Notes under the pieces: model-generated
Databases searched by the model: none
Seen by the model: only the letters and a program-made list of their open reading frames with translations
What the model was told of the DNA's origin: nothing
Source: Basidiobolus meristosporus CBS 931.73
Lineage: Eukaryota; Fungi; Basidiobolomycota
Reading direction: 5' to 3'
Length of the DNA stretch: 61,650 bases
NCBI GenBank assembly: GCA_002104905.1
Contig: MCFE01000533.1
Span: 1-61,650, forward strand
In this document: piece after piece, positions 22,524 to 61,650 of the stretch
How positions within the stretch are numbered: position 1 is the first letter of the stretch
Layout: every line of letters begins with the position of its first letter
Made by a program: the position numbers and the translations under genes

Positions 22524-24050
22524 TTATACATGCACAATTTGTAACGCATTGGTATGGCCAATTCCCGGCTTGAAGCCTTGGAGAACGATGACAGCATCCC
22601 CGTGATTTAAAATATCCGATTCAATAGCTTGTTCTATAGTCCATCGGATACGCTCGTCCACATCTTGTTGCCATAAATTTCCATTCAGCTTTTCTTCCCG
22701 CGTCAATGCTCGCTTTGGATAGACAAAGGGATAGCAACCGCGATAGAGGTGGATTTGACGGGCAGTCTGCGCTTCTCTTGTGATCGTTAGGATTGGACAG
22801 TGTGGCCTATACTTAGCGACAAGTCTTGCCGAATTTCCAGAAGTCGACAAAACTACAATTGCCTTGGCACCAGACTCATAGGCGGCATTCACTGCCGAAC
22901 TGGCGATTGTCTCACTGGTGTCAATGGGGACTTCCTGGAGTGCTCTCATCTCGTTGAAAAGTGCTTGGTAGGAGATAACCGACTCGGCCAGTGCTGCAAC
23001 ATGTGCTTGCATCTCAACGGCTTGAATAGGGAATGCTCCCTTCGCCGTCTCTCCTGACAGCATCACGCAATCCGCGCCATCAAGAATCGCATTCGCCACA
23101 TCGGATACCTCTGCTCTGGTAGGTCTTGGGTTGTAGGTCATCGACTCGAGCATCTGGGTTGCACAGATCACCGGTTTACCCACCAGGTTGCACTTGGCAA
23201 TCATCGCCTTCTGTGCGATGAACACTCGTGAAACGGGAATCTCAATCCCCAAGTCTCCTCGAGCAATCATCACCCCGTCCGTCTCTGATAGGATCTCATC
23301 GAAATTGTTCACCCCCTGGAACGACTCAATCTTCGAGATAATCTTGATGTTCTTGCCCGCCTCTCCAAGCACTTTGCGGATCTGGCGCACATCCTCTCCT
23401 GACCGGATGAATGATGCAAAGATCATGTCCACCCCTTGCTCAACACCAAACTTCAAGTCACTGATGTCCTTCTCGGACAGTGCTGGTAGATCGACATCGG
23501 TCTTGGGAAGGTTCACTCCCTTGCGTGAAGCGAGCTTGCCTGCGTTCAAGGCGCGCACTCTGACTCCATCCGAAAGAATCTCAGTCACCTCAAAGGACAT
23601 GATTCCATCGTCCACGAATATCGCCTTGCCTACTTCTATCACCTTTGGCAGGTTCTTGTAGTCAACGTATATCACCTCGCCTGAGCCTGCTTCCTTGTAC
23701 TGTTCGTCGGTAGAGAAGGTCATCTCGTGACCCGCCTCAAACGCCACCTCTTGGTCACCCTTCATAAGACCTGTGCGAATCTCCGGGCCTTTGGTGTCCA
23801 GGGCAATAGCCACGGGTCTGCCAGGCATCTCCTCCATGGATTTGCGAATATTGGAGATAACCGAAGCGTGATATTCGTAAGAGCCGTGTGAGAAGTTCAT
23901 ACGAGCGATGTTCATACCCGCCTTTCTGAGGGCGTTCATCATAGGAACGTTGTTGGTCTTAGGGCCGATGGTACATATGATAGATGATTTGCGAAGACCA
24001 GGCTCGACGTCAACATCAAAACTTGCAAGCCAACTAAGTCCGTTGTTCAT
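22524..24050 (-). CDS. PYK: Pyruvate kinase, copy 1 (intronless)
   Basis: [56 protein letters not shown]. Start at MNNGLSW (24050). Confidence 0.97.
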
Positions 24051-24937
24051 ATTAGAGAAAGAGAAATAATAAAGATTTAATGTGAAGGTACTCTGAAATG
24101 TCAAAAATATTACTCAGTCAAGACTAGCGATTTTATAATGAAGTCTCAATAAAAGCAAAATCACAAATCACGTTTTGAAATACCAAGTCACAATTGGAAA
24201 TATATCGAAGCATGTAAACTAATCCCATAGGGAGGTCATAGTATAATACAATTAGACCTATTATAGATGACAGATAGTACTAACATCACCAATGTCACCC
24301 CACACAGAAAAATATACTCCCCCCATGGTTAAACCACGCACCACTCACCTTTCACGCTCACCAGCATCATCAGCATTGCCATCATCCACTAGTGAAATAA
24401 TTTCAACTATTGGGGACTTAATAAGATACAAAAGATAGGACATTATGGCCATAAACTGACCTAAGCATCAATCAGAACCATATTGGTTTGCTATCACATT
24501 CTATTCTACCGATAACCATCACATTGTGACGCAATCGTTCAGTCAGGGTCAAGTGGATTGGGGGAGATCCGATAAGTCGATTCCTAATCAGTAGATCTGA
24601 TGTAACCTTGGCTTTCCAAATTGGCAGTAACCAAGGATCGGCTTGTGGCAAAGATTCCTAGGGATATTGGTGGAAAGTGGCTAAACGAAGAGTCGAATTA
24701 ATCAAGGTGGCGCATGCTTATCAAGATGGTGATCACATGCACGCGTTTCTCCTTAATTTACACTTGACCTCATGTATTCACACACTGGTTTGTAAAGGAG
24801 TTTCATTAGAATCCTCGGGAAAATGCCGCTTTAGAACGATGAGAATATGTTATTAAGATGTCTATATTTTATTTGGGTAGAGTATCGATAAATATTACAA
24901 GCTAGCATAGATATTTACTTGCATCAAGCTACTGAAA

Positions 24938-26476
24938 TCAAGCAGCAATAACATGCATGGAGTTGGTATGACCAACACCGGGTTTGGCGCCTTGAACAAC
25001 AACAAGAGTATCGCCACGTTGGAGGATGTTCATGTCAATGGCTTGCTCAATACTCCATTGGATGCGCTCATCCACGTCTTGTTGCCATTTATCAGAGTCG
25101 GTTAATTCTTCAGGACTCAATGAAGCCTTGGTATATATGAATGGATAGCAACCACGATAGAGGTGGATTTGACGGGCTGTTTGTGCTTCTCTTGTAACAG
25201 TTACAATAGGACAATGAGGTCTATACTTAGCGACAAGTCTTGCCGAATTTCCAGAAGTCGACAAAACTACAATTGCCTTGGCACCAGACTCATAGGCGGC
25301 ATTCACTGCCGAACTGGCGATTGTCTCACTGGTGTCAATGGGGACTTCCTGGAGTGCTCTCATCTCGTTGAAAAGTGCTTGGTAGGAGATAACCGACTCG
25401 GCCAGTGCTGCAACATGTGCTTGCATCTCAACGGCTTGAATAGGGAATGCTCCCTTCGCCGTCTCTCCTGACAGCATCACGCAATCCGCGCCATCAAGAA
25501 TCGCATTCGCCACATCGGATACCTCTGCTCTGGTAGGTCTTGGGTTGTAGGTCATCGACTCGAGCATCTGGGTTGCACAGATCACCGGTTTACCCACCAG
25601 GTTGCACTTGGCAATCATCGCCTTCTGTGCGATGAACACTCGTGAAACGGGAATCTCAATCCCCAAGTCTCCTCGAGCAATCATCACCCCGTCCGTCTCT
25701 GATAGGATCTCATCGAAATTGTTCACCCCTTGGAACGACTCAATCTTCGAGATAATCTTGATGTTCTTGCCCGCCTCTCCAAGCACCTTGCGGATCTGGC
25801 GCACATCCTCTCCTGACCGGATGAATGATGCAAAGATCATGTCCACCCCTTGCTCAACACCAAACTTCAAGTCACTGATGTCCTTCTCGGACAGTGCTGG
25901 TAGATCGACATCGGTCTTGGGAAGGTTCACTCCCTTGCGTGAAGCGAGCTTGCCTGCGTTCAAGGCGCGCACTCTGACTCCATCCGAAAGAATCTCAGTC
26001 ACCTCAAAGGACATGATTCCATCGTCCACAAATATCGCCTTGCCTACTTCTATCACCTTTGGCAGGTTCTTGTAGTCAACGTATATCACCTCGCCTGAGC
26101 CTGCTTCCTTGTACTGTTCGTCGGTAGAGAAGGTCATCTCGTGACCCGCCTCAAACGCCACCTCTTGGTCACCCTTCATAAGACCTGTGCGAATCTCCGG
26201 GCCTTTGGTGTCCAGGGCAATAGCCACGGGTCTGCCAGGCATCTCCTCCATGGATTTGCGAATATTGGAGATAACCGAAGCGTGATATTCGTAAGAGCCG
26301 TGTGAGAAGTTCATACGAGCGATGTTCATACCCGCCTTTCTGAGGGCGTTCATCATAGGAACGTTGTTGGTCTTAGGACCGATGGTGCAGATGATGGAGG
26401 ATTTTCGGATTGAAGGACTAACATCGACGTTAAAGCTAGCCATCCAGCCAAGACTTGTGGAGTTGATATCGTTCAT
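24938..26476 (-). CDS. PYK: Pyruvate kinase, copy 2 (intronless)
   Basis: Same motifs as copy 1 in a 512-aa ORF. Confidence 0.97.
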
Positions 26477-28535
26477 ACTAAAATCGACTAGTGGGTAAGA
26501 GATAAAATATTTTGCTGTTAGCGACCATTACCAATCTTTATATAAACATTTACTCCAGCCTACTCAACAGGATTCTGTAGGTCATTGGTTGGTATCTTTC
26601 GCTTTGAAAAATGGAAACAAGCACCCCAATCATCCAGAGCTCAATCTGATAGGAGTGCCAAAACTGGTATCTGCACCATGAAGTTATTAGTTTAATCGAT
26701 TTATTTACTGTGGCGGAGCGTACTTGTATTTACTGAACCTTTGTTAGGGGTTTCGATGAAATGAACGCTCACGAACTGGCGTGGTTGGATCAGGTTTCCA
26801 TTTTGGAAATGCGGGTCGGATTCCTTTATCAACAGGGTGAAAATACGAATCTAGTGATGAAATGTGCTACCTTCGTTGCAGCCTGTCCACATGGCATGCC
26901 GAGTCCTCAATCACCAGTTTAAGTTTGGTTGTAGAGCCTCGTTCTGATGGGAAATACTGGTGTGCGTCGCACCTTCCAAGGCCAGCGAGGGTGGGAGACA
27001 GGGAGTTACATAAGATCGCGGTGATAAGGGTATCTTGTACCGTAAACCTCATCTTCCAATTCCTGCAGCTATTTGTTCATATCAAGCGGATATAGTAAGG
27101 GGCATACTAACTAAGATTCTCGTCGTTTCAAGTGTAACTCCAACAAGAATGCGAGCAGCCAAAATTTTCCATGGTATTGGCAGCATTCTTTTGACCATTC
27201 TGCTAAATGCGCCATTATCGATCGAATGAGTTCATCTTGCTTCCCTAATCATCTGTGCAACCCTGAACGCGCTGAGGCTGGCCAATACTTCTCTGGTTCA
27301 ATGCTATCAAATCGAGCAAGGATATGTCAGATTCCGGATAGCAATGTAGAAAATAGCAGTCCTATGGGCTTGCTGATTTCCAGCTTCAACTAGGGAAAAC
27401 ACACTTCATCGATTCAGAACACATCATTCTACGTCATTCCTTGAGAGAAATGTCCCCTGACTGGCCACAGGCGCTAATTATGTACGGCGTTGGGATGCAA
27501 CACGGCCATTATATAAGCAAATAGTGCTCAACATGTAAGGACTTGGAATATGTTGCATAGCGATGCCAAGCTCGGTGATTGGAAGGAACACACATCTACA
27601 TAAATGGGAATGGAAATGCCTAAATCCGGGGACTTCCTAATTGGAAGCAAGCAAATGAGTATTTGAGCACAAACTGAGCGGCCTCCAGCGCAAAGGTAAC
27701 CATTGCCTTGATCCCATTGAATGACATTGATGAATGCTGTACCATGTTATTAATGAGTGGATCGTAGCATCTACATCTATTTACTTGATAAATCTTGAAT
27801 TGTAATTAATGAGCACAATCCCCAGATTTGGCTGGAGGAGTTAAAATGATTAAGTTAATTAGACTTTCGAACAGCTTGATTTCGCTTATTTATAGTTCCT
27901 GGAAAGAGGCTATTTTCGTTGAGTGCACAATTTGCATTGGCAGTTGACGACCAACCGAATGGGATTTGAAGGAGATTTCTTTGCTCCTTGAATGCACAGG
28001 CTGTACCCAGGACACATACACAGCATACCCTTCAGCTCGATAATTAGCCATATTCCTAAAAATACCCTCAAATTCGGAAGTTTTGAATGGAATCGACCAG
28101 TTTTATTCGTTTCAATTTCATTTAGGAGTGACTAGTGGTTACATGCGGAAAAAATTGTTAAAAATAACTGTCATCCAATAGGAAGGTTACTCTTATTGCG
28201 TTGCTTTAAAAGAATGTTTACTAAATTGCTTATCCCAGTGTTTCATCTCTGCATCCTTTCCCTTCCCTTAATCACCACCATTTTTCATTTTTGGTTCTTT
28301 TGACGCCTTCACCCGAGTTTCCTGCTAGCCGAAGCTAACAACCCTCTTTGTTCCTTGTCAGCAGCCAGCTAAGACTTTGCACGCCTTTTCGCAAGCTTTT
28401 TATTTTCGTGCTGCCTTTAGAACTTGCTTTGTGGTGTGAGAACAATTCACTATAGACAATTATCTTGATAGACATACAGTCCTTTGAAACAGTGCCGTCT
28501 AAGTATTTTATCTTGCCAGACACAATATAATACAC

Positions 28536-38619: not shown

Positions 38620-38865
38620 TGTTGTAAGAATTTTGGAGATATTGAAGAACAAGTAGGTTATGTGGTTTTCACTAGACAATTTAGTGAATGGAAAGTGGTA
38701 TTTATACTTTTATATGGTCTTGGCAAACTAAACACATAGAGTATGCTTAAGAAGGTTGCAAGAGCATGTGTATAGAGTTTGGGGACCTTTGGACAACTTT
38801 AACAATTTTCATGTCCTTGGTACCTGAGAATTTGGTCAAATATTCCAAGTAAATCCCAACAAATA
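38620..38865. mobile_element. Partial LTR of the Ty1/copia family
   Basis: Begins TGTTGTAAG and aligns by eye with the LTRs at 45812-46158 and 53372-53700. Confidence 0.75.
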
Positions 38866-38906
38866 ATATGGGCAGTTGATGGAATATTTCAGTGTAAGTT
38901 CTGCTC

Positions 38907-45811: not shown

Positions 45812-46158
45812 TGTTGTAAGAGTCGTGGAGATATTGGAAGTGATTTGGAGAGCAAGTAGATTATTTGGTTTTTACTTAATGATTTATTGAATGTAAATGT
45901 AGTACTTATACTTTTACATGGTTTTAGCAAATAGCGCGTAGAATATGCTTAGAAGGATCTCAAGAACATGTGTGCAAAGCTTGGGGCAGTTTGGACAGCT
46001 TTGAGAATTTTCATGTTCTGGATACTTGATGTTTTGTTGAACATATTCTAAGTAAGTCCGGGCAAGGAGTTTGGTCAGTATTCTCTAAGACTTGTAGGTA
46101 ATGCTCCAAGTGACTAATCTAGGCCAACATTTAAGTGTAATTACAGATTTTTACAAAA
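45812..46158. mobile_element. Solo Ty1/copia LTR with 5-bp target-site duplication
   Basis: TGTTGTAAG...TTTTTACAA(A)A termini, flanked on both sides by TAAAG (45807-45811 and 46159-46163). Homologous to the LTR at 53372-53700. Confidence 0.85.
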
Positions 46159-48941: not shown

Positions 48942-49384
48942 ATGATTCCCCGCCATTACTTGTAATAATAATCTCCATTGTAAAATTTCTCACCATAATA
49001 AATCTTCACATGATTTTCACAAATTAAACTAAATGCGGTAGCTATCACGGTATGTGCGGATTGGGTAAATTTGCCCCAAACGTTGGATCGGATCTTACCT
49101 CCAGTATGCATCCCAATTAATAGTTGTATGGTTACGCATATGCCCAAATTAAGATTCAATCTCAGTCGCTCAATAAACGTTGTTTACTCGAGAGGGATAT
49201 AATTGGGTAGATGGGGTCATCCGAGGCGAATATAAAGAAAGCATGTACGTTGTCCTTGCATATACTGAGCGGTGACAAGTGGCCATATTAGGTTCGCACA
49301 TAGTGAGTTCTCTAAAATTTGTACACTATGATTTAAATAGCTAAGCTATGAGAATACCACGTGTAACTATGAAATTTACGATAT

Positions 49385-49622
49385 ACCCACTCAACTAATA
49401 ATTCATATTAACTAGGCCTAATTCTGGTCTAAGATATTCAAGTTTATCTCTAGCTAATGGTTTTATGTACATATCCGCAATCATTTCATCTTCAGCACAG
49501 TGAGCTAGGTTAACCAAGTAGTCTTCTATGGATGAAACAATGCATAATACCTATGTGCTTAGCTCTAACTTAGAAAGCTGGATTTCTACCAAATTGAACA
49601 TATTCTTGCCTATCCTGAAACA
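49385..49622 (-). mobile_element. Degenerate Ty1/copia RNase H 3' fragment
   Basis: Aligns with 53701-53945 (PPT CCCACTCA plus RNase H end). Cut off at the junction with LINE A. Confidence 0.7.
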
Positions 49623-49712
49623 CAGTAGGGGAGGGAAAGTCACCAAGTTGGTGAAATCTTTATTTGAGTTAAGAACTAATCCAAGTACAAATAAAGAAGC
49701 CAATTAAGAGGT

Positions 49713-52562
49713 CTAGAACCTCTCTAATAAGTAGTCTAATTTATGTTTTGTTTCATCTCTAATGTTTGTTTCAATAAAGTAGAGCTCATCAGGGGTAAAT
49801 ATAAAATTCAAGGGTTTTGGGGGAAGTACAAATTGTAGATGTTTCTGATCAATATAATCTAAGACTGGAACCCAGCCTAGGATTAGGTGTAGTAGGAAAG
49901 GTGTGTGGACTTGTAAGTAGTGCTGCCACATAGATCTTAGATGGTCCTGAGCCAGTAGTCTTGGTTTCTCAGCTTTTTGAAGTTTTGAAGCAAGCTCTGT
50001 TACTACAGCAGAGCCTACCAGGGCATGCCAGCAAGAAGATTTTAGGGAGGAGTTAGATTTAAGCCATTGTTTGATGGAGGGGTTATGTGATTTCTGAAGT
50101 TTCACTAGGAAGGAAGCACAGAGATAGACCATTTGGATTTGGTATGGGTAGAACCCAAAGGCTCCATTAGTTGCATGGATATAGGGAGATACTGGAAGAT
50201 ACGGTACCAAGGATCTGATACACTGATGGATAAATTTATCCAGGTGGTGAAGTTCTCTGGAGGTTAGGGGTATAATGTGGAGACCAAATTCAAGTACTGG
50301 TAGTACATACTGCTTCAGAAGTATAGGGATCTTTTGAATTGGAGTTTCCGGAGTGACTACTACCAGAAGCTTTTTAAGAGCCTGTTGGGCAAGACAGATC
50401 CTATTATTCAGGTGGAGCTTTGAGTCAATCCCATATTGACAAAATGGCAGACCCAGATATATTGCTGTTTGCTGTGGCAGAATGCTAGTGTTCTGTATAG
50501 TTGTAGTGCACCCAATTGGGACTGTCTTGGAAATTGAGAGTGAGAGGTTGTTGGCAGCCAAGTACTTCTCAATAATGGCAGTGTCTGTTATGGGATTAGG
50601 AGTTGCAATCTTGATATCATCTGCATAGAGAGTTAGTAGTGGATAGGGAGAGTCTGGTGAGGGGCCTTTTGGAAATAAAGGAAAGTCATGCAGAAATATC
50701 ACAAATAGTAAGGGACCTAGTACAGATCCTTGGACTACACCATTTGGAACCTCATAAGTCTCTGATGTGCCACTTAGATGCAAAATTTTGGCTGAGTTCT
50801 TACAAAATAGAGAACGTACAAGAAGGGTCATTGGCAGTGTGGTAACTGCTAACAGCTTTCTCCAAAGCAGGGCTCTGTCAACAGAGTCAAAGGCTTTAGT
50901 AATGGCAAACAGAATGGTTGGCAATGAGAATTGAAGTGAATGATCATGGCTTAGCACTACAGCCATATCCAAGGAGAGTTTGGGCAAGAAACCAAACTGA
51001 GAAGGATGGAATGGATATAGTGGAGATTGCAAGGATCTTGCTATTATAAGCTCAAAGATTTTCTGGCATGTTGGTAGGAGTGAAACTGGCTGGTAACAAC
51101 CTGGGAGTGAGTGTTTCCCCTTCCCTTTGTATAAGGGTATTACATTTGCCTGTGACCAGGGCTTTGGGGTAGTCAATTGTTGGGCACGGATAGAGTGGAA
51201 TGGGAGAAGTAAGTGACTCATTTTGGAGTAGCACACCCAGAGTAGATCATAGGTAATCAAGTCATGTCCAGGTGCAGTATGTGCAGGAAGCTTCTTTAAA
51301 GTTTTCTCCAGAAGCTTGGCTGAAATCAGAATTGGAGATGTTGGACTGCTGGATATGTTACCAGTATGATAGAAAGGAGGAGTGGGATGCATGGATGAAT
51401 CAAAGAAAATAGGGGCCAGTTTGTCTGGTGATGGTATACTCCTTACTTGGGGTCTCATGGCTTTGTATACTCTTGATATGGACCTTGTGGTGGCATTCAT
51501 ATTTACCAAGGGCAAGGTATCCATGATATGAGCCCATAATCTAGTATGCTTAGGGATCTGTAGTGACTTGGAGTAGGAGATTGTGCTTTCCAGGAGGTTC
51601 TGTGTTTTTGGGTTAGGGAAACATAGGTAGCTGGAATTTAAGGCAGAAATGATGGATTTCCATTTAAGCTGGTTTGCACATGGCTTTTGGTAGGACTTGG
51701 TGGGTAGGGCCAGACAGCCAGTGATTATGATGAAATGCTGGTAAAATAGCCATAATGCATTTATACCAATACAAATCCATGCAGGTAAGCTGGGAAATGC
51801 ATATTCTGTAAGCAAGGATAGGTAGTTGGCAAAGTCCTGCATCTGTGATACTGAAGCTTTGGCAGGCAGGATTGTCAATGGCTGAAGAAGGGTGCCAATT
51901 GGTAGGGTTTTTCTAGCAGAAATGATAATATGTATTGGCTTGTGATCAGATTTCTCTAGTGAACCACCGCTGATATCCTCTGGAATGCTTGTAACCTGGT
52001 GGATGTACTGTAAGGCAGCTGGAGTAGCTGTTACCCAGTCAACACAACAATGGGCTTGCTGAGTGTTTAGAGTTACCAGATGGTTTTGTTGGAGAAACTT
52101 TTTAAAGTGCTGCTCTTGGGTTCTAAGTCTGGATGAAATAGTGGTGATATTTTCAGGATGGGGAATATTTATATCTCCCACTAACATACAAGGGATTGAT
52201 GAGCTGTTAGTGAACTCTGATATGGCCAAGAAAATTGCCAGTGTTATGGAGTTAGACAGAGATGGAGGGAGATAGACAGTAATGGCTACTATAGTTGGAA
52301 GTGTTAGAGCATAACAGTAATACTCATAGATGATGGATACATTTGTTGAGGGTGCAAGCTTAGAAGATGAAAGAGCAATGAGTGCCATTGAGTGAGCTGG
52401 AAATTTTGGGTGAGCAGCTGAATATGCATTCAGTCTAGAGGGAAGTTTTGGCAACTTAACATCAATTAGTAGGAGCAAGGAATATTCCTTTTTCAGTAAG
52501 TTTTCTAATTCAGCTACTGTTGGAGTGATGGAGTTGCAATTAAGTAAGAGTATGTTCTGTAG
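49713..52562 (-). CDS. LINE A ORF2: AP endonuclease plus reverse transcriptase (no AUG start; motif-A Asp replaced by Ala)
   Basis: LLLNCNS, VYLPP, VGDINIPH, CVDWV, SDH (APE). PVSLLPT, LFAITKAFDSVDR, GVVQGSVLGPLLF, LYADDI (RT). Confidence 0.9.
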   Translation of the reverse strand, partial: LQNILLLNCNSITPTVAELENLLKKEYSLLLLIDVKLPKLPSRLNAYSAAHPKFPAHSMALIALSSSKLAPSTNVSIIYEYYCYALTLPTIVAITVYLPPSLSNSITLAIFLAISEFTNSSSIPCMLVGDINIPHPENITTISSRLRTQEQHFKKFLQQNHLVTLNTQQAHCCVDWVTATPAALQYIHQVTSIPEDISGGSLEKSDHKPIHIIISARKTLPIGTLLQPLTILPAKASVSQMQDFANYLSLLTEYAFPSLPAWICIGINALWLFYQHFIIITGCLALPTKSYQKPCANQLKWKSIISALNSSYLCFPNPKTQNLLESTISYSKSLQIPKHTRLWAHIMDTLPLVNMNATTRSISRVYKAMRPQVRSIPSPDKLAPIFFDSSMHPTPPFYHTGNISSSPTSPILISAKLLEKTLKKLPAHTAPGHDLITYDLLWVCYSKMSHLLLPFHSIRAQQLTTPKPWSQANVIPLYKGKGKHSLPGCYQPVSLLPTCQKIFELIIARSLQSPLYPFHPSQFGFLPKLSLDMAVVLSHDHSLQFSLPTILFAITKAFDSVDRALLWRKLLAVTTLPMTLLVRSLFCKNSAKILHLSGTSETYEVPNGVVQGSVLGPLLFVIFLHDFPLFPKGPSPDSPYPLLTLYADDIKIATPNPITDTAIIEKYLAANNLSLSISKTVPIGCTTTIQNTSILPQQTAIYLGLPFCQYGIDSKLHLNNRICLAQQALKKLLVVVTPETPIQKIPILLKQYVLPVLEFGLHIIPLTSRELHHLDKFIHQCIRSLVPYLPVSPYIHATNGAFGFYPYQIQMVYLCASFLVKLQKSHNPSIKQWLKSNSSLKSSCWHALVGSAVVTELASKLQKAEKPRLLAQDHLRSMWQHYLQVHTPFLLHLILGWVPVLDYIDQKHLQFVLPPKPLNFIFTPDELYFIETNIRDETKHKLDYLLERF

Positions 52563-53372
52563 TCAGGCAGACTCTGAGGTTGCCTGTTCCTGCTGAAACT
52601 CTTGCACTGCCCTTTGTAAGTTTCCAGAGTTATTCCACAACTCTTCAAATGGAGCTTGTGTAATGTCTTTCAGGATTCTAATTGCTTCCTCTTTCAAGAA
52701 GTAAGCCACATCATAGGTTGGAGCCTGTTTCTTAATGGTAGCAAAGAAAGCCATAATTGCCATGTGAGCTGGGGGCTGGTTGATTATTCCTGGCTCAGTA
52801 TCCATTGCCTCTGGTGGAATGATTGTGAATTTGGTAGGCACCCAGTTTAGATTTTTTGCCAGATACTTAGTTAGTGCAGTGGTGAAGTTTCTGTCTACAA
52901 TCATTTCTAGGATCTTTCCTCTTCTCCAAGCTAGGTTAACAATTTTTGAAGTGTCAATATTTAGAGAGCGGAATGTACGCCTGATGTTTGCTATAGTAGT
53001 CCATGGAACATTGGCAAAGTATAGCAAGGACCAATTCTGGAGCTGAGGTAGGTTTGCTGGAGGCTTATAGGTAGACTTCCTGGCAGGTTGTGTGGTAGGC
53101 TTTGGTGTTTCCAAGGTAGCAAGTTGTGGTTGAGACATTTTAGAATTACATATGACTTTGGAAAAAATTCTGCCAGCAACTGTGTCAGGAATGTTAGTAC
53201 TCATTGATGGTGCAGGGCCTGGCTCCTGGTACTCCTTTTCTAGAATACTTGAGTGTGTCTCTTTTTGTTTTCCTTTATCCAATGTGCTATGCCTTGGAGT
53301 GGGATTTTGAAGAATAGTGACTTCAGGTATCAACTCTGGGGTTTGGTGATTGTCAAACATTGTTGCTTGCAT
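52563..53372 (-). CDS. LINE A ORF1 (gag-like), N-terminus interrupted by a copia LTR
   Basis: Homologous to the ORF1 of LINE C (TYKPPANLP, VPWT.I.NIR, IVNLAWR.GKILE, PPAH.AI..FF..IK.QAP.YDVAYFLK). Confidence 0.8.
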   Translation of the reverse strand: MQATMFDNHQTPELIPEVTILQNPTPRHSTLDKGKQKETHSSILEKEYQEPGPAPSMSTNIPDTVAGRIFSKVICNSKMSQPQLATLETPKPTTQPARKSTYKPPANLPQLQNWSLLYFANVPWTTIANIRRTFRSLNIDTSKIVNLAWRRGKILEMIVDRNFTTALTKYLAKNLNWVPTKFTIIPPEAMDTEPGIINQPPAHMAIMAFFATIKKQAPTYDVAYFLKEEAIRILKDITQAPFEELWNNSGNLQRAVQEFQQEQATSESA

Positions 53373-55254
53373 TGTAAGAGTCTTGGAGATATTGGAAGTG
53401 ATTGGGAGAACAAGTATATTATGTGGTTTTCACTTAATGATTTATTCAATGTAAAAGTAGTATTTATACTTTTACCTGGTCTTGGCATTACAAACACATA
53501 GGATAGGCTAAGGAAGGTCCCAAGAGCATGTGTGAAAAGCTTGGGGCTGTTTGGACAACTTTGAGAATTTTCATGTTTTGGGTAAATATTCTAAGTAAAT
53601 CCCTACAAGGAATTTGGTCAGTATTCTCTAGGATTTAGGGTAATGATCTAAGTGACTAAGTTAGGTGAATATTTAGGTGGAATTACAAGTTTTTACAACA
53701 CTCCCACTCAGCTAAATATTTATACTGACTAGTCCTAATTCTGACCTAAGATATTCAAACTTGTCTCTAGCTAATTGTTTGGTAAATATGTCTGCAATCA
53801 TTTCATCTGTAGGACAGTAAACTAAGCTAACTAAGTTATTCCCTATAGCTTCACGTATGAAATGATGTCTAATATCTATGTGCTTGGTTCTAGCATGAAA
53901 AGTTGGATATCTACCTAATTGTATACATCCTTGATTATCCTGAAATAAAGTAATAGGCGTTTTTTGACATAGGCCTAAATCTGTAAAAAGTTTTCTTAAC
54001 CACATTGCTTCTCTTGTAGCTTCACAGGCTTCCATATACTCTGCCTCTGTAGTAGAAAGTGCTACGGTTGGTTGCTTTCTTGAATTCCATGAAATTGCTC
54101 CTTTACAGTAGAGAAAGGTGTATCCTGTGGTGGATCTTCTGTCTTCCAAATTTTGTCCCCAATCAGCATCAGAGTATCCCACAAGATCCTGTTCTGAATC
54201 CTTATAAGTGTATCTTAAGCAGATATCAGCAGTTCCTTTTAGGTATCTAAAAATTTGCTTAACTGCTGCAATATGATCAAATCCATAGTTCTGATTATGT
54301 TGGCTGACAGCTCCCACTGAATATGAGATATCTGGACGTGTTCCAAGCATGATATACATCAGACTGCCAACCATAGATTGATAAGGAAAGTCTGCTTTCA
54401 GATGGCACCAAGCTCTCTTGATTTGGTTGAGTTTTGACCAAGTTAAGGTTTGTCTCCATTGGGGTAGCTGCCGGTTTACAGTCTTCCATTTTGTACTTCT
54501 TTAGTATATCTTGAATATACTTGGATTGACTTAGGGCAATAGTCTGGGTACTTCTGTCTATGGAGAACTTAATCCCTAAGTAGTAACTAAGTTCTCCTAG
54601 ATTGGACATCTTGAACTCCTTAGATAGGCTGGATTTAGTCTCTTCCAATGTTTCTTGGTTATTGGTGGCTATAATAAGATCATCCACATATAGAGCTAAT
54701 AGAACTGGATTTGCTCTATCTGGCTTATAGTATATACTATAGTCAGCATTACTCCTTCTGAAACTCAAAGATTCCAAATAAGAATCTATCTTGCAATACC
54801 AGGCTCTTGGTGATTGTTTGAGACCATATAGTGACTTTTTAAGCTTGCAGACCAAATGAGGGTTATCTTGGTCAACAAACCTATCAGGCTGGTCCATATA
54901 CACATCCGCATCAAGTTCTCCATTCAAAAAATGCAGTTTTTACATCCATTTGATGAATAAAAAACTTATATTTGGCTGCAATAGCCAATGGTAATCTGAT
55001 GGAATTAAACTTGGTTACCGGTGCAAAGGTCTCAGTATAGTCAAGTCCTTTTGTTTGAGAGTATCCTTTGGCTACAAGTCTTGCTTTGTATCTTTCAATT
55101 GTACCATCAGCCTTGTATTTTGTCTTGAAGACCCATCTGTATCCAATTGATTTTTGGTTGATTGGAAATTTGACCAAGTCCCAAGTTTGATTTTCCATCA
55201 GGGCCTGATATTCCTCAGTCATTGCAGATCTCCAAAACTTTGTCTGAGGGCTAT
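53373..55254 (-). mobile_element. Ty1/copia element fragment: RT, RNase H, PPT and 3' LTR (53372-53700); frameshifted and 5' truncated
   Basis: WRSAMTEE, RWVFKTK...RYKARLVAKGYSQ, HQMDVKTAF, LKKSLYGLKQSPRAW, LYVDDL, GYSDADWG, VALSTTEAEY, RTKHIDIRHHF. PPT AGTGGGAG precedes TGTTG. Confidence 0.92.
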
Positions 55255-55272
55255 TTAGGGTTAGGGTTAGGG
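55255..55272 (+). repeat. Interstitial telomeric repeat (TTAGGG)3
   Basis: Perfect repeats fused directly to the truncated copia RT. Confidence 0.9.
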
Positions 55273-55273
55273 G

Positions 55274-56566
55274 TCTAAATTCTCTTATTGAATCTGATCA
55301 AGTGTAGTAATACTATATCAACTTGATTCAAGTTGAAAAGTGCATATTGTATAAAGAAGATATATCTATAGTAATGTTAAGGTAAAATACTGCTCAAGTT
55401 GAGTTGAGTTCTGAAAAGAAATTTGTCAACAAATCAGGCTAGAAAGTGAAGTAAAGCTGGGAGTTATTTGAAAGCAAAGCACTAAGGGAAAGTGTAGAGC
55501 TATACTACCACTTCCTGAAAGGCAGGGATCTCACAGGAAGGCAGAAGCTCAGGTCTAATTGCAGATATGATAGCAGTGTTGTATCCAAGAGAAAGTGTGA
55601 TAAACTCTTGAATGGTTTAACTGAACCAAAGGGACAATTAAGTGCAGAATCTTAGAATTGTCAGAGAGTGGCGGGAATATTAGCAAAAAGATTCTGATCT
55701 AAAATTGGTCTTGGATATAGCTGGGTTGGCTGTAAAGACAATGATATTTGTTTGCTAGGCAGGCTAGGCTTGGTGTTCTTTGGAGTGCTAGATGTACTAG
55801 GCTTGGATAGAAACTAGAACGGAATTGTTGGATTCTTATTTTTGCTGAGACAGAATCTTAATTTTGTTGAGACACACACTAAACCAAAAGGTTCAGTAAA
55901 CTTTATTTATACTTTTCTGATCAAGTTGAATTAGTAAGCGCCAAGGGACTGGATTGATTGAAATCAATTTGGGTGTTCATAGGTGCATAAGATAAATGAA
56001 AATTACATCATCAATCAACTGATGTCTTGGCAACTGCACAGTGGTTGGATAGATCTCAGATGACTAATCACCTGGGAAGGCTTGGCAGATAGGGTGATAA
56101 CGTAATGATCATTTGAAAATAGATCAGGTGTGATAGCTAAAAATAGATTCTGAGGTGGGATAAAATAAACTGTAACTGGGATTTGTTATGTTTGGGTTAG
56201 GGAAAATCAGTTAGGGTACTAGATTTTCAAACAGAGTAAAATTGGCTAAGTTTTAAATGTTGATGCACAACATCACTTCCTTCCGGAAGAGGAGTTTTTT
56301 GATACCTTCTGGGTTCCTCTGCGGCTACAATACTGATCAATAATGGCAACATCATCAAAGTTGGTGTAAGGTTCCCAGGTGTTGTGTTTGGCATCATAGC
56401 CTTTCCACTTGACTAAATTAAGGCAATTTGGTTCTTCTCCATCATGGTCCACAATAGCTTCAACTTCATAGGATTCCAAAGTTACTGGGTCTTGAGAAAT
56501 GAGTTTGAGTGAAGAAGGTGGAAAGTTTTTGGGTAGCAGTGCTCCAGTGTTATCCTGAAGTACGTA
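55274..56566 (-). mobile_element. Ty3/gypsy chromovirus 3' fragment: integrase chromodomain, PPT and probable 3' LTR
   Basis: YEVEAIVDH...LVKWKGYDAKHNTWEP chromodomain (56273-56479), followed by purine-rich GGAAGGAAGTGA and TGTTG at 56272. The LTR extent is not defined. Confidence 0.7.
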
Positions 56567-57603
56567 AGGGTTAGGGGATGATCATCACCAAAGGGTGAAA
56601 TCTTTATTTAAATAATAAATAAAGAAGCCAAGTTTGAATATGAATATCTGAGATGCAGGAAGCCTACAAGATAAACTTGGACTTTGCTGTATCCCAAATA
56701 TCCTCAATATCAAAGTCTAGAGGAGAGTGTAGCAAGACTGCTTGTTCACTGTAGTATTTCTTGAGGAAGTTTGTGACTTGAAGGGAAGGAGAGTTTTTCA
56801 ACAAGCTGGTAAATCTTTTGAGGAGTTCTTTTTCCAGAGAGAATGGCACAAAGAGTGGAATGTCCAAATGATATCTGAATATATGCTCTGAGAGCTCCCA
56901 ATCCAGCATATTTTTGACTTCTTCTGTAAAATCTTCAACAATATCTTTGTCAAGAATAACTTCCAAGAGATCCCTGGCAATGTACTGAATGTTAATAATC
57001 TTAGGCATATGAATTCCTAGGTCCTTGAGGTAGTTTCTTTGTTCTGATATTGGGAGATATCCTGCATTTCTGAAATAGCAAACAGTCCAGTTGGCAGTAG
57101 GAGGAGTATCAGGGCTGACAGGGAATCTTCTTCTGGCTTTAGAGTGCACTGGCTTAGGAGACTGTCTTGATGGAAGGGCAGCTGGTTTTGGATGAGCTTG
57201 AAGTGCTTGGGAGTAGGTTTGAGTACAAGTAGTAGAAGTTCCTGGTTGCTGAGAATTTTCAGATTGACTGGATGAAGAGCTAATTGATGGGCTGCAAGGT
57301 AAGGAAGAAGCCGAAAGAGAAGTGGAGAGGGCTGGGTGAAGTTCAGAAAGAGTTTTGAAAAGAATTTGGATCTGAGATTTCAACATTGAGTTTTCAGCTT
57401 CAAGAAGTGAAACTCTTTGTTCAAGGTAAGAAGTCTGTAAAGAGTGAAAGTTGGGTAAAGACATGGAAGTAGTAAATAAGAAGAAAGGAGTAGTTGGGGT
57501 GGGAGGGTGGGAAAATAGGTAAGAAGAAAAGAGAGGAAAGATCTGAAATTGAAAATCTCAGAATTTATAGATGGATGGACAAGGGTAGAGGATTGATTAA
57601 TCC
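56567..57603 (-). mobile_element. ORF1-only non-autonomous telomeric retroelement B (ORF 56664-57464, 266 aa)
   Basis: Coiled coil, then a Ser/Pro linker, then a domain homologous to LINE ORF1. No RT. Carries the shared 3' double hairpin and is bounded by AGGGTTAGGG on both sides. Confidence 0.8.
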
Positions 57604-57618
57604 AGGGTTAGGGAAAAA

Positions 57619-60600
57619 TAGGGTTAGGGGGGAGACAGTCACCAACAGGTGAAATCTTTATTTCAGTTGAAACAAAGAAGCCAGCGCTACTGTTGTAGCT
57701 TTGATACAAGTGTGTGTAGCTGAGGGGAATTTGTAGGTAAGTTAATAAGAAGTGATGATAGTTCTTCAGTGCTCAAGACACTGTTCAGTGGGAAGGGGGG
57801 TAGCAAGAGAGGTAAGAATGACTTGTGAACAACATTAATGAGGGGAATGTGATAAGGATTGATATTCATCATAAAGGGAGTGTGCTGCTGCAGATATTGC
57901 TGCCAAAGGTCTGTCAAGTACTTCAGGTAGGCCAGCTTGGGTTTTTCTGACTGCAGAATATAGTGAGCAAACTTCTTGACTTCAGGATCTCCAAGTATAG
58001 TTCTCCAGCAGGAGTCAGGTGTAGTGTGGTGTGTTCTCTTCCAGGCCTTAATCAGTGGGTTGTTGCAGTTGTGAAGTCTGAGGTATAATCTGGTTCTAAG
58101 GTAGAGAAGTCTGATCTTATAGGGCATAAGCCCAAAAGCACCAAGAATAGCATGTCTGTAGGGGCATTCAGGCAAATGAGGCACCAAGGAGGTAATGCAC
58201 CATACTGCAAACTTGTCAAGCTTAGTGCAGTCTCTAGAAGTAAGAGAGAGAAGTGGTAAGCCAAATTCCAGGACAGGGAAGACAAACTGCTTGAGTAGAA
58301 GGAGGCAGCTGGGAGCTGAAGTTGTAGGAGGAGTAACAGCCAGTAGCTTGTGGAGTGCCTGTCTTGCTAGGATAATTCTCTTCTTCAGGTGTGCTCCAGA
58401 GTCTAGTCCAGTAGGAAGGAAAGGAAAGCCAAGATATGTAGCAGAAACCTGAGCAGGTAGAGTGGAGTTCTCCAAGTTGATGGGAGAGCCCAAAGGTACT
58501 GTCTTTGCAATGGAAAGCTGGAGATTATTCTTCTGCAGATACTGGTGGATGGTCTGAGAGTCTTGTTGCACATTGGAGGAGGATATTCTGATGTCATCAG
58601 CAAAGAGAGTAACCAGGCAGTCAGCTGAGAGTCTTGGGAAATCATTCAGGAAGATGGCAAACAGTATAGGACCAAGCACAGAGCCTTGAACCACTCCATT
58701 AGGAACTGAGAACACAGCTGATTGCTCACTTGGGTGCAGAATTCTTGCTTGTGGATCCAGAAACAGAGACCTGACAAGGAGGGTGAGAGAGGTACTGGAG
58801 AAGCATTGCAACTTGGACCAAAGCAGATTTCTGTCAACTGAATCAAAGGCCTTAGTAATATCAAACAGAACAGAGGGATACTTGCACTGGAGAGAGTGAT
58901 CTTGGCTAAGTATGACTGCATATTCCAAGGAGAGGCCAGGAACAAAGCCAAACTGTGCAGGATGAAACTTGAGGGAGTCAGAGTAGAGCTCCTGAGCAAG
59001 CAGAAGCTCAAACACCTTTCTGCAGGTGGGCAGCAGAGATATTGGCCTGTAGGAGCTAGGATCCAGGTGCTTTCCTTTACCCTTGTACAGTGGCAGAACA
59101 TTTGCAAAGGACCATTCCTCAGGAGTAGAAAGCTGGGCTGAGCATTGCTGAAACAGTGGAAGCAGAAGTGCAGACATGGCCTTGGTACTAGTCTTCAGAA
59201 GCTCATAGGAGATTGTGTCCACACCTGGAGCAGTAGAGTTGGGAAGCCTCTTGAGCACATTATGGATTCTCCTTTGATCAAGTGCAAGTGGGATGGGCAG
59301 AGTCTTGAAGTCAGGATGAAAGCCAGGAGTTGAGTACTGCTTTGTAGAGAAGAAGATGTTAGCCAGCTGTTCTGTTGAAGGTAACTTCCTGGAAGAGGGC
59401 CTCATTGCCCTGTAGAGTCTTAACACTGTTCTTGTTATAGAGTTGGAAGATTGCAGAGGCAAAGAACTCATAATATGATCCCAGAGCTGAGTATGCAGAG
59501 TGTGGTGAATTGCCTTGGAGTGGTGTATTGCTGTCAGGAGGAGTTTCTCTGTTTTTGGGTTAGGGAAACTCAGGTAGCTTTGTTGCAGGGCTGAAACAAT
59601 GGATTCCCATTTTCTTGAGGTAACAGCAGTAGTCTTGCATGGCAGTGAGAGGGAGGCAGACACTAGAATCAGATGCTTTACAAGGAGCCAGGCATAGTTG
59701 AGATCATCTGGCAGAGAAAGTAGCAAACTGGCAAGCTTCAAGTAGTTCCCAAAGTCTTTCTTCTGATTCTTGGTAGCTTTGTGGGTGAGCACAGTAAGTT
59801 TTGGCAGCTTCTTCTTCACAACTGGTTGCATAGAAAGGGACCAGGCTGGGTGGTCAGAGGCTCTCAAGGATCCTAGCTCAGCTCCAGAGAATTGCTTAAC
59901 TTCATTCACAAAGTAGAGGGCAGCAGCAGAAGGGCAGATCCAGTCAACACATCTTTTCTCAGATTGAGCACCTAGTGCTAGCAGGTGGCTTTCTCTCAGG
60001 AAGTTCAGTAGGAATGTAGACCTTGGCTTCATTCTTGCAGTCAGAGTAGTCTTGTTCTCAGGATGGGGAATGTTGAGATCTCCAAGCAAGATAACAGGTG
60101 TTGATATAGATTGTTGGTATTGCTGAACCTTCTGGCATATAACTTGAACTTCCTGAAGGGCAAGACTTGGAGGCAGATAGCAGAGCACCAGACTGATAGT
60201 TGGCAACTGAAGAGCAGCACAGTAAGGGGAGTAAAGAGGAACACAGAGCTGAGGAGTATTGATGGTAGAAGAGATGAAGCAGATAGAGGAGGTATTCTTT
60301 GTTCTAGGAGTAGAAAAGCAATATAGATTAGTCAAAAGTATAGAGGGTAGCTGAACATCAATCAAACACAGGAGGGAAAATCTTGAAAGAAGTCTCTCTA
60401 GAGTTGGTCTTGATGGCTGTATGCTGTTGCAGTTAAGCAACAGAACTTCAGGTAGTCAGGCAGAGGTTGTAGCTTCTTCAGAGGCAGCATTGACAATGTG
60501 ACCTGCTGAGTCCCAGAGCTCTTCAAATGGTGCATCACTTAAGTCAGCAAGGAGGGAAATGGCATGATTCTTGAGGAAGTATGCCACATCATAGGAGGGG

Positions 60601-60971
60601 GCTTGTCTCTTGATGGCAGCAAAGAAAGACAGAATGGCAACATGGGCTGGAGGCTTGTTGAACAGTAGAGAGTCAGAGGATTCAGATTCTTCAGGCACTA
60701 TCTTGAAGTCAGTTTTCAGCCAGTTAAGGTTCTTCTCCACAAAGGCAACAAATGGGTCAGCAATGTTTTGGTCTAGGATAACCTCCAGAATCTTCCCTTT
60801 TCTCCAGGCCAGGTTGACAATTCTTGAGAGCTGAATATTGCATGCCTTGAGTGCTTTCCTGATGTTGGAAATGGGAGTCCAGGGAACTTGCTTCAAGTAC
60901 ACCACAGTCCAGGTAGAAGCTGGTGGTAGGTTTGCTGGGGGCTTGTAAGTCCTTCTGTGTTGCAATGGAGC
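57619..60971 (-). mobile_element. Telomere-associated LINE, copy C: 5'-truncated ORF1 (60456-60965) plus intact APE-RT ORF2 (57687-60455)
   Basis: LLLNCNS, CYLPP, LGDLNIPH, CVDWI, SDH; YRPISLLPT, LFDITKAFDSVDR, GVVQGSVLGPILF, LFADDI. Shared 3' motif at 57639-57683. Confidence 0.92.
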
Positions 60972-61498
60972 TTAGGGGGGGGGGAGGAAAGTCACCAAGT
61001 GGTGAAATCTTTATTTACTTATGACAAGTATCTAAAGAAGCCAAGTTAATCTGAAGTTATTCCTAGAAAGCTAGGTCTGAGAGATATCTTCCTGGTAAGC
61101 CAGGTCTGAGAGTTGAGAAGCTGAGTAGTACTATATTTCCTAGTTAGCTAGGTCTGAGAGTGGTTTCCTGGAAAGCCAGGCCTGAGAAGTGAGAATCTGA
61201 ATATATCTGAGCTAAGTTATACTGGTTTGCGGTAGCTGGATTGTGGCCGGAAAGGCCAGTAGACTGGGGGAACTGAGATGAATTTCTGGGCAATCACTGG
61301 CCAAATTTACTAGGCAAATCTGGCCATTAGCATTTCAAGGATTTCAGCCAATCAGAGCCTTTACTTTGCCCGATGGTTGATCAAGCCATCTCCCAATGAG
61401 CACACATCAATTTATTAATCAAATTTTGCTGGATCCAGGATTTGAACCCACAACCATGGGTATGGAAGGGTTAGGGATAACCACAAGGCTAAGTGTTC
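60972..61498 (-). mobile_element. Putative tRNA-derived SINE D, directly capped by the telomere
   Basis: Minus-strand A box TAGCCTTGTGG (61491-61481) and B box GGTTCAAATCC (61448-61438) at tRNA-like spacing. No long ORF. Carries the LINE-shared 3' motif at 60992-61043. Confidence 0.7.
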
Positions 61499-61650
61499 TT
61501 AGGGTTAGGGTTAGGGTTAGGGTTAGGGTTAGGGTTAGGGTTAGGGTTAGGGTTAGGGTTAGGGTTAGGGTTAGGGTTAGGGTTAGGGTTAGGGTTAGGG
61601 TTAGGGTTAGGGTTAGGGTTAGGGTTAGGGTTAGGGTTAGGGTTAGGGTT
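61499..61650 (+). repeat. Telomere (TTAGGG)n, about 25 units to the end of the window
   Basis: Perfect TTAGGG array with the G-rich strand running towards the end. Confidence 0.99.

Follow-up and report, generated by a model that had tools for sequence, protein, structure and literature searches.

A candidate UGA-CUA readthrough junction between ORF1 and ORF2 of LINEs at a Basidiobolus chromosome end

It has long been asked how LINEs make their ORF2 protein when the RNA is bicistronic. The described routes that we found are the stop-start coupling of SART1 and the unconventional reinitiation of L1; for Paramecium, sequence data have led to the proposal of readthrough. Here, we analyzed a stretch of 61,650 nt of Basidiobolus meristosporus DNA (hereafter the window) that holds two LINEs, elements C and A, in which ORF1 and ORF2 lie in one frame with a UGA followed by CUA between them, and we asked how ORF2 could be translated from such an arrangement. 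An earlier inspection of the letters without database searches (the sequence-only reading) had proposed that programmed readthrough of this UGA makes an ORF1-ORF2 fusion. We find that readthrough at a low level, which would yield an ORF1-endonuclease-reverse transcriptase (RT) fusion, is indeed the best-supported reading, with a probability of roughly 65%.

A retroelement stack next to the telomere

The window is a fungal chromosome end, in which intron-containing genes up to ~49 kb are followed by a stack of retroelements and then by the telomere (Table 1). Among the genes, two tandem pyruvate-kinase-like copies (22524-24113 and 24938-26527) have an identical long core and differ at their ends, which reflects either gene conversion or assembly collapse.

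Table 1. Features of the retroelement stack, from the telomere inward.
Feature	Position	Strand	Remarks
Telomeric (CCCTAA)n	61499..61650	minus	window end
Short module that lacks a long ORF and has the shared 3′ tail	60980..61498	minus	between telomere and element C
Element C ORF1, 3′ part only (5′-truncated)	60456..60971	minus	RRM-like and helical domains, then a disordered tail with a Ser-Ala end
Element C junction TCT GCC TGA CTA C	60452..60464	minus	UGA 60458-60456
Element C ORF2, 922 aa, APE-type endonuclease and RT	57687..60455	minus	ends TAG; no CpG
Element C 3′ tail, with two predicted hairpins ahead of C-rich telomere-like sequence	57625..57690	minus	
Element B, an ORF1-only partner of 266 aa with an ORF1 core and a coiled coil	56572..57464	minus	ends TAG-G, then shared tail
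Element A ORF1, 3′ part	52563..53371	minus	5′ part removed by copia-type LTR
Element A junction TCT GCC TGA CTA C	52559..52571	minus	UGA 52565-52563
Element A ORF2, 949 aa	49713..52562	minus	ends TAG
Element A 3′ tail, same two predicted hairpins as C	49628..49708	minus	
Shared 3′ tails	61048-60980, 57690-57625, 56636-56572, 49708-49628	minus	then C-rich, partly telomere-like sequence

Elements C and A are APE-type non-LTR retrotransposons (LINEs): They encode an RT and an APE-type endonuclease, lack LTRs, and have a shared 3′ end. The RT matched Pfam RVT_1 (E = 2.6e-25 for C and 7.4e-16 for A), with human L1 ORF2p as the best solved match (E = 1e-22). The endonuclease carries the motifs N, Y, GDxN, D, and SDH and matched Exo_endo_phos_2 at E = 3e-4, i.e., below the curated cut-off; searched alone with phmmer against the PDB sequences, it gave no match. 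A structural model of ORF2 matched L1 ORF2p, APE1, and the TRAS1 endonuclease (the latter two at E ~1e-5) and predicted the first endonuclease strand at ORF2 residues 3 to 8 with a pLDDT of ~75 (mean of the whole model, 57.8). All six aligned sequences that cover the motif read LIDV at ORF2 codon 33/34 (~60359 and ~52463), with an Asp at what we take to be the site where L1 and APE-type endonucleases usually carry the metal-binding Glu; judged by this residue, the activity of the endonuclease may be altered.

Neither window copy retains a whole ORF1, as C is truncated near 60975 against the preceding module (a 5′-truncated copy with a conserved 3′ end) and A is broken by a copia-type LTR at 53372. 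ORF1 had no Pfam match. Residues 10 to 83 of the C ORF1 model matched RRM-like folds (best Z of 8.7, rmsd of 1.9 over 69 residues), which is near the background of the tool, and the ORF1 tail was predicted to be disordered. In relatives, the full ORF1 spans 434 to 491 aa and includes a coiled-coil-like segment, as judged by eye. No protease domain was detected in the proteins of C and A. The window copy of A, which carries private changes, an altered RT motif, and CpG-type damage, is likely inactive. Element B, whose ORF1 (57464-56664) is homologous to that of A (BLASTP E = 3e-13) and has a relative (P0099) in B. ranarum, is likely a non-autonomous partner.

A self-comparison of the window found no terminal repeats around the LINEs. 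The copia-type sequence that interrupts the ORF1 of A is a 3′ part (53372-55272) with its LTR (53372-53698); it starts directly after two CCCTAA repeats, and related LTRs lie near 45814-46156 and 38622-38876. At ~56500-56300 on the minus strand, we noted by eye a chromodomain-like fragment followed by an LTR-like start, the fragment probably being the end of a gypsy-type element. Four different modules, all on the minus strand, have in common a 3′ tail that is predicted to form two hairpins (TCTTT..AAAGA and TCACC..GGTGA). Pairing holds in 58 of 60 cells of this tail, with a compensatory change in one pair, and since 49 of 500 shuffles did equally well, the covariation is weak. The orientation of the tails would fit priming at the G-rich telomere strand.

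The junction of ORF1 and ORF2

The two junctions that the sequence-only reading had quoted were recovered letter for letter: C reads ACC TCT GCC TGA CTA CCT GAA GTT CTG TTG CTT AAC TGC, and A reads GAG TCT GCC TGA CTA CAG AAC ATA CTC TTA CTT AAT TGC. Past this single in-frame UGA, with no spacer, ORF2 is open in the same frame for 922 aa in C and 949 aa in A, and the 922 codons of C contain no other stop. No ATG occurs in any frame from −30 to +48 nt around either stop, in line with the earlier statement that ORF2 continues without an AUG before the endonuclease motif LNCNS. The companion claim, that the first Met falls at or after GDxN, holds for C (codon 142) but not for A, whose first in-frame Met is codon 59; this Met, which C lacks, precedes GDxN but follows LNCNS (N8) and LIDV (D33/34). 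The in-frame near-cognate codons are not common to both elements either, being CTG at +5 and TTG at +6 in C and ATA at +4 in A.

The ORF2 proteins of C and A are 45 to 46% identical, yet both junctions read TCT GCC TGA CTA C. The sequence-only reading had pointed to this identity in otherwise diverged copies, and the 13 nt are indeed the same, although such a run is not unique: The codon alignment of C and A also contains two identical stretches in ORF2 (20 and 14 nt) and two in ORF1 (14 and 13 nt). All these other runs lie inside conserved protein motifs, whereas the junction run sits between differing codons. From the C/A codon statistics (identical codon given identical residue: Ser 17/36, Ala 10/31, Leu 24/105), the odds that all three flanking codons stay identical are ~0.035, and TGA CTA is expected from the composition of each element at ~0.012 to 0.013; because C and A are related, these are rough retention odds rather than independent draws. 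That TGA is enriched in CpG-depleted DNA, making up 65% of the off-frame stops in C, is a point against readthrough. A point in its favor is that the true terminators of the C ORF2, the A ORF2, and B are all TAG, B thereby offering an internal contrast to the junction stop.

The distance from the stop to the endonuclease motif LLLN is four codons in both elements, and that from the last LW of ORF1 to the stop is 18 residues in C versus 23 in A. The constant spacing on one side and the five-codon change on the other tie the stop to the frame of ORF2. Codons 1 to 58, which precede any Met in either element, show 50% amino-acid identity, with an identity of 0.70 at position 2 versus 0.43 at position 3, and thus the Met-less N terminus of ORF2 behaves as coding sequence. 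A stimulatory hairpin downstream, for which the sequence-only reading had suggested looking, did not emerge: No conserved hairpin was found at +4 to +63 (z of −1.7 in C and +1.1 in A), and shared long-range pairing between the 3′ tail and the sequence just past the stop was unsupported (rank 71 of 272 windows in C and 73 of 283 in A). The base following CUA is C in both elements instead of the readthrough-strengthening G. Given the lack of a conserved hairpin and of such pairing, and the C at this position, the efficiency of readthrough would probably be low.

The stop in the two families and in their relatives

The CpG observed/expected ratio is 0.00 to 0.11 in 50 to 61 kb (50001-61650) versus 0.55 to 0.97 elsewhere in the window. 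Element C has no CpG in 3285 nt and all Arg codons of its ORF2 are AGA or AGG, with the ORF still open, which suggests long selection under CpG methylation. In elements that are nearly free of CpG, a TGA could be a deaminated CGA. We surveyed variants in the contigs of the two best-matching runs (X1 and X2), which come from one sample that is possibly the source of the window itself, with floors of 80% likeness and 1% for reporting, bearing in mind that contigs drop rare variants. Neither junction showed another letter at 1% or more, though both were covered. Both families are multi-copy, as pieces of the A family appeared at 6,300- to 8,300-fold depth versus 98-fold for a 30-kb contig and the C family was deeper still in X1/X2, contig depth being only a rough guide to copy number. 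Elsewhere in C, all 6 listed variants are synonymous; in A, 4 of the 8 that we examined change a residue. At 52380-52379, the window has CTC ATT versus CTT GTT in the family, which would represent both outcomes of one ancestral CpG, and nothing comparable is seen at either junction. Hence, within this one sample, the UGA is what both multi-copy families carry at the junction as a fixed feature, which argues against the decay of a CGA. The contigs of a second sample (X5 to X7) span parts of ORF1, with the junction outside them; the stop and its context are known as DNA from two lineages.

Among protein relatives, five ORF2 clusters are close (48 to 80% identity), and the other 72 matches are distant and partial. 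In a quick RT tree of 76 of the 79 sequences (three had no spanning RT match) and no named clade references, C groups with P0002, and A falls with P0005 and P0003. Together, the five have a support of 89, such that the common ancestor of C and A covers five of the seven close ORF2 sequences, with P0001 and P0004 outside. The seven close RTs are united in one clade (100) whose stem is long (1.54), and none of the remaining 69 database RTs is well supported as its sister.

For ORF1, a protein annotated in Basidiobolus meristosporus (P0090) has a C-terminal part that is one residue off the ORF1 of element C. We compared eight close lineages (C, A, P0089, P0092 to P0095, and P0097), leaving aside P0090 as C's own family, the B-like P0099, and 12 more distant matches. 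ORF1 ends in Ser-Ala in five of the eight, in Thr-Ala in P0093, and in Ser-Ile or Thr-Asn, one each, in P0095 and P0097; none of the 12 more distant matches has a Ser-Ala end. Positions −3 to −9 vary, with agreement in at most four of the eight lineages, and the stop falls 18 to 23 residues past the last LW in all eight. The distant ORF1s suggest that the clade is wider than its ORF2 matches show. An N-terminal Cys-x2-Cys zinc-finger-like segment is found in P0092, P0094 to P0096, P0100, P0102 to P0105, and P0107 and is absent from P0089 and P0093.

Contigs of matching length among the relatives suggest the ORF1/ORF2 partner pairs P0093/P0001, P0094/P0003, and P0089/P0002. The called ORF2 starts are ragged, from codon +2 to ~+260, and such scatter is expected where no AUG is conserved. 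P0001 begins M-D-LLLLNCNS, with the M at codon +2. Gene callers write M for other start codons too (P0087 has M where P0086 has V), and P0001 may therefore have an AUG at codon +2, with GTG or TTG equally compatible with the called M. Were it a true ATG, then that lineage would have an AUG at the junction, an observation that the sequence-only reading had named as refuting its proposal; the possible AUG of P0001 is the main point against readthrough.

No fused ORF1-ORF2 protein appeared among 19 profile matches (the longest of 848 aa), nor did any fall in the range of 896 to 2555 aa, which is weak evidence. TGA-CTA occurred in none of 28 distant LINE loci on metagenome contigs, one of which (L013) has a long in-frame upstream segment of 477 codons, TGA-G, and a Met 7 codons on. 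GTDB genomes held no junction relative, the four chance pattern matches being without a tblastn match, and viral contigs held none. Two fragments of this fungal LINE family (P0078 and P0084) are annotated as Bacteroides fragilis proteins on contigs of 0.7 to 1.6 kb, probably as contamination of the bacterial assembly.

Routes to ORF2 and known systems

In the readthrough that we favor, most ribosomes would terminate at the UGA and release ORF1 protein alone, and a small fraction would pass it by near-cognate decoding to make an ORF1-endonuclease-RT fusion of roughly 1,360 to 1,420 aa. Near-cognate tRNAs for UGA are those for Trp, Cys, or Arg. The short context would work with no conserved 3′ structure to help it, ORF1 would be linked to the enzyme through its disordered tail, and readthrough would set a high ORF1:RT ratio, by analogy with gag-pol readthrough. 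This reading is favored by the fixed stop, the constant LLLN spacing, the lack of an AUG or a shared near-cognate start, and the sufficiency of UGA-CUA in a fungus. In Ustilago maydis, according to the available part of that study, UGA-CUA suffices for readthrough between two reporters, UAG and UAA reduce it, and a G after CUA strengthens it but is not required (PMC4207609). The gag-UGA-pol junction of Candida Tca2, however, failed to direct readthrough in a reporter (PMC2194720), which counts against our reading as a warning, by analogy, that the flanks of a UGA junction do not always have this effect. More tentatively, and with the odds rather against it, an unclassified telomere-stacking fungal LINE clade might translate its genes in the manner of a retrovirus. 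RT would then be made only as an uncleaved readthrough fusion, the coiled coil of ORF1 would bring the enzyme into the RNA-protein particle, elements with ORF1 alone would add shell, and TCT GCC would act as an extra upstream signal; leaky stops would be a third route to ORF2 in LINEs, so far overlooked.

In the main rival reading, which we regard as unlikely, ribosomes would instead terminate at the UGA and reinitiate next to it without an AUG, yielding a separate ORF2 protein. In the accessible portions of the literature, initiation at the L1 ORF2 is unconventional and AUG-independent (PMC5972666), and reinitiation in caliciviruses with mutated starts tolerates non-cognate codons (PMC5009743). 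P0001 may carry its AUG at codon +2, no fused relative was found, and the modeled ORF2 fold begins directly past the stop, such that the ORF1 part would be structurally unneeded. Reinitiation, however, predicts neither the same frame, nor UGA specifically, nor CUA, and C and A share no AUG or near-cognate codon from which it could start. The overlapping UAAUG and the downstream structure that SART1 requires, going by the available excerpt, are not seen in C and A, and the UGGGA ~54 nt upstream of the C stop, which A lacks, is accounted for by adjacent Trp and Asp codons.

A separate RNA for ORF2, made from an internal promoter or by splicing out the stop, appears improbable. The junction motif does contain CTGAC, the fungal branch-point consensus, and A has a CAG six bases past the stop. 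Splicing, which the sequence-only reading had listed as a possible refutation, would have no shared acceptor before the first strand, where the only candidate AGs (a CAG ending at +9 in A and a weak AAG ending at +13 in C) are in different phases; the Tca2 gag-pol junction holds a minor promoter (PMC2194720), but an internal promoter would leave no AUG before N8 and D33. We consider it more improbable still that these are dead single-ORF elements whose TGA arose by decay of a CGA or by other damage, as the near-total loss of CpG and the damaged window copy of A might suggest: Decay would yield TGA and CAA copies, a type of pair seen at 52380-52379 and at neither junction, and it sits poorly with the stop position shared by all eight close ORF1 lineages and with the intact 922 codons of C. 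Least credible of all is a UGA recoded as selenocysteine or reassigned genome-wide. LINEs need free ORF1 in excess, which counts against recoding, 3 of the 9 host-gene frames examined end in TGA, and the UGA falls in a predicted disordered linker. Selenocysteine machinery does exist in some early-diverging fungi, according to a passage on Gonapodya, but no Rfam match, SECIS included, was found in 49000-61650.

If low-level readthrough is the route, then the enzymes of LINEs can work while fused to ORF1, and such ORF2s are being truncated or discarded during automated annotation. UGA is the only stop codon in the ciliate Paramecium, and SART1 is telomere-specific. In the open-licence literature, we found no paper that describes these Basidiobolus elements, reports such a junction in a fungal LINE, or tests readthrough in a LINE by experiment. 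The claim of the sequence-only reading that such a fusion is unusual for a non-LTR element needs softening, since readthrough of the ORF1 stop was proposed in 2017 for the Group 3 non-LTR retrotransposons of Paramecium tetraurelia (PMC5405496, available in part). Like C and A, these are LINEs with an APE endonuclease and RT, ORF1 and ORF2 in the same frame, an in-frame stop, and solo-ORF1 partner elements; unlike C and A, they are from a ciliate, and the proposal comes from consensus sequences; our comparison covers the shared in-frame-stop layout.

Other systems, again as far as the excerpts go, share single parts of the arrangement. Tpi1 of U. maydis has the identical six-base signal, sufficient without further structure and already validated in a fungal reporter system, but the UGA-CU(A) metabolic genes of fungi and animals gain short peroxisomal extensions (PMC4207609). 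In C and A, which reside in an early-diverging fungus, the extension would be an enzyme of 920 to 950 aa, and CUA is followed by C instead of G. MuLV (PMC5009743) and Tca2 (PMC2194720) likewise place a structural protein and a polymerase in one frame with one stop, but they are LTR elements with a protease, and MuLV uses UAG and a pseudoknot. SART1, through UAAUG coupling, and L1, through termination-reinitiation, also make ORF2 after ORF1 from bicistronic non-LTR RNAs (PMC5972666), and Candida Zorro3 has four in-phase stops (PMC3956500). Where these three have an AUG, a spacer, or several stops, and where the overlapping stop-start with AUG of the SART1 type is absent from both junctions, C and A have a minimal one (one stop, a six-base signal, no spacer, and no AUG) in a multi-copy family with an intact-looking member. 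Overall, the comparison makes this a likely case of gag-pol-like readthrough with a UGA-CUA signal in an APE-type LINE of an unplaced clade.
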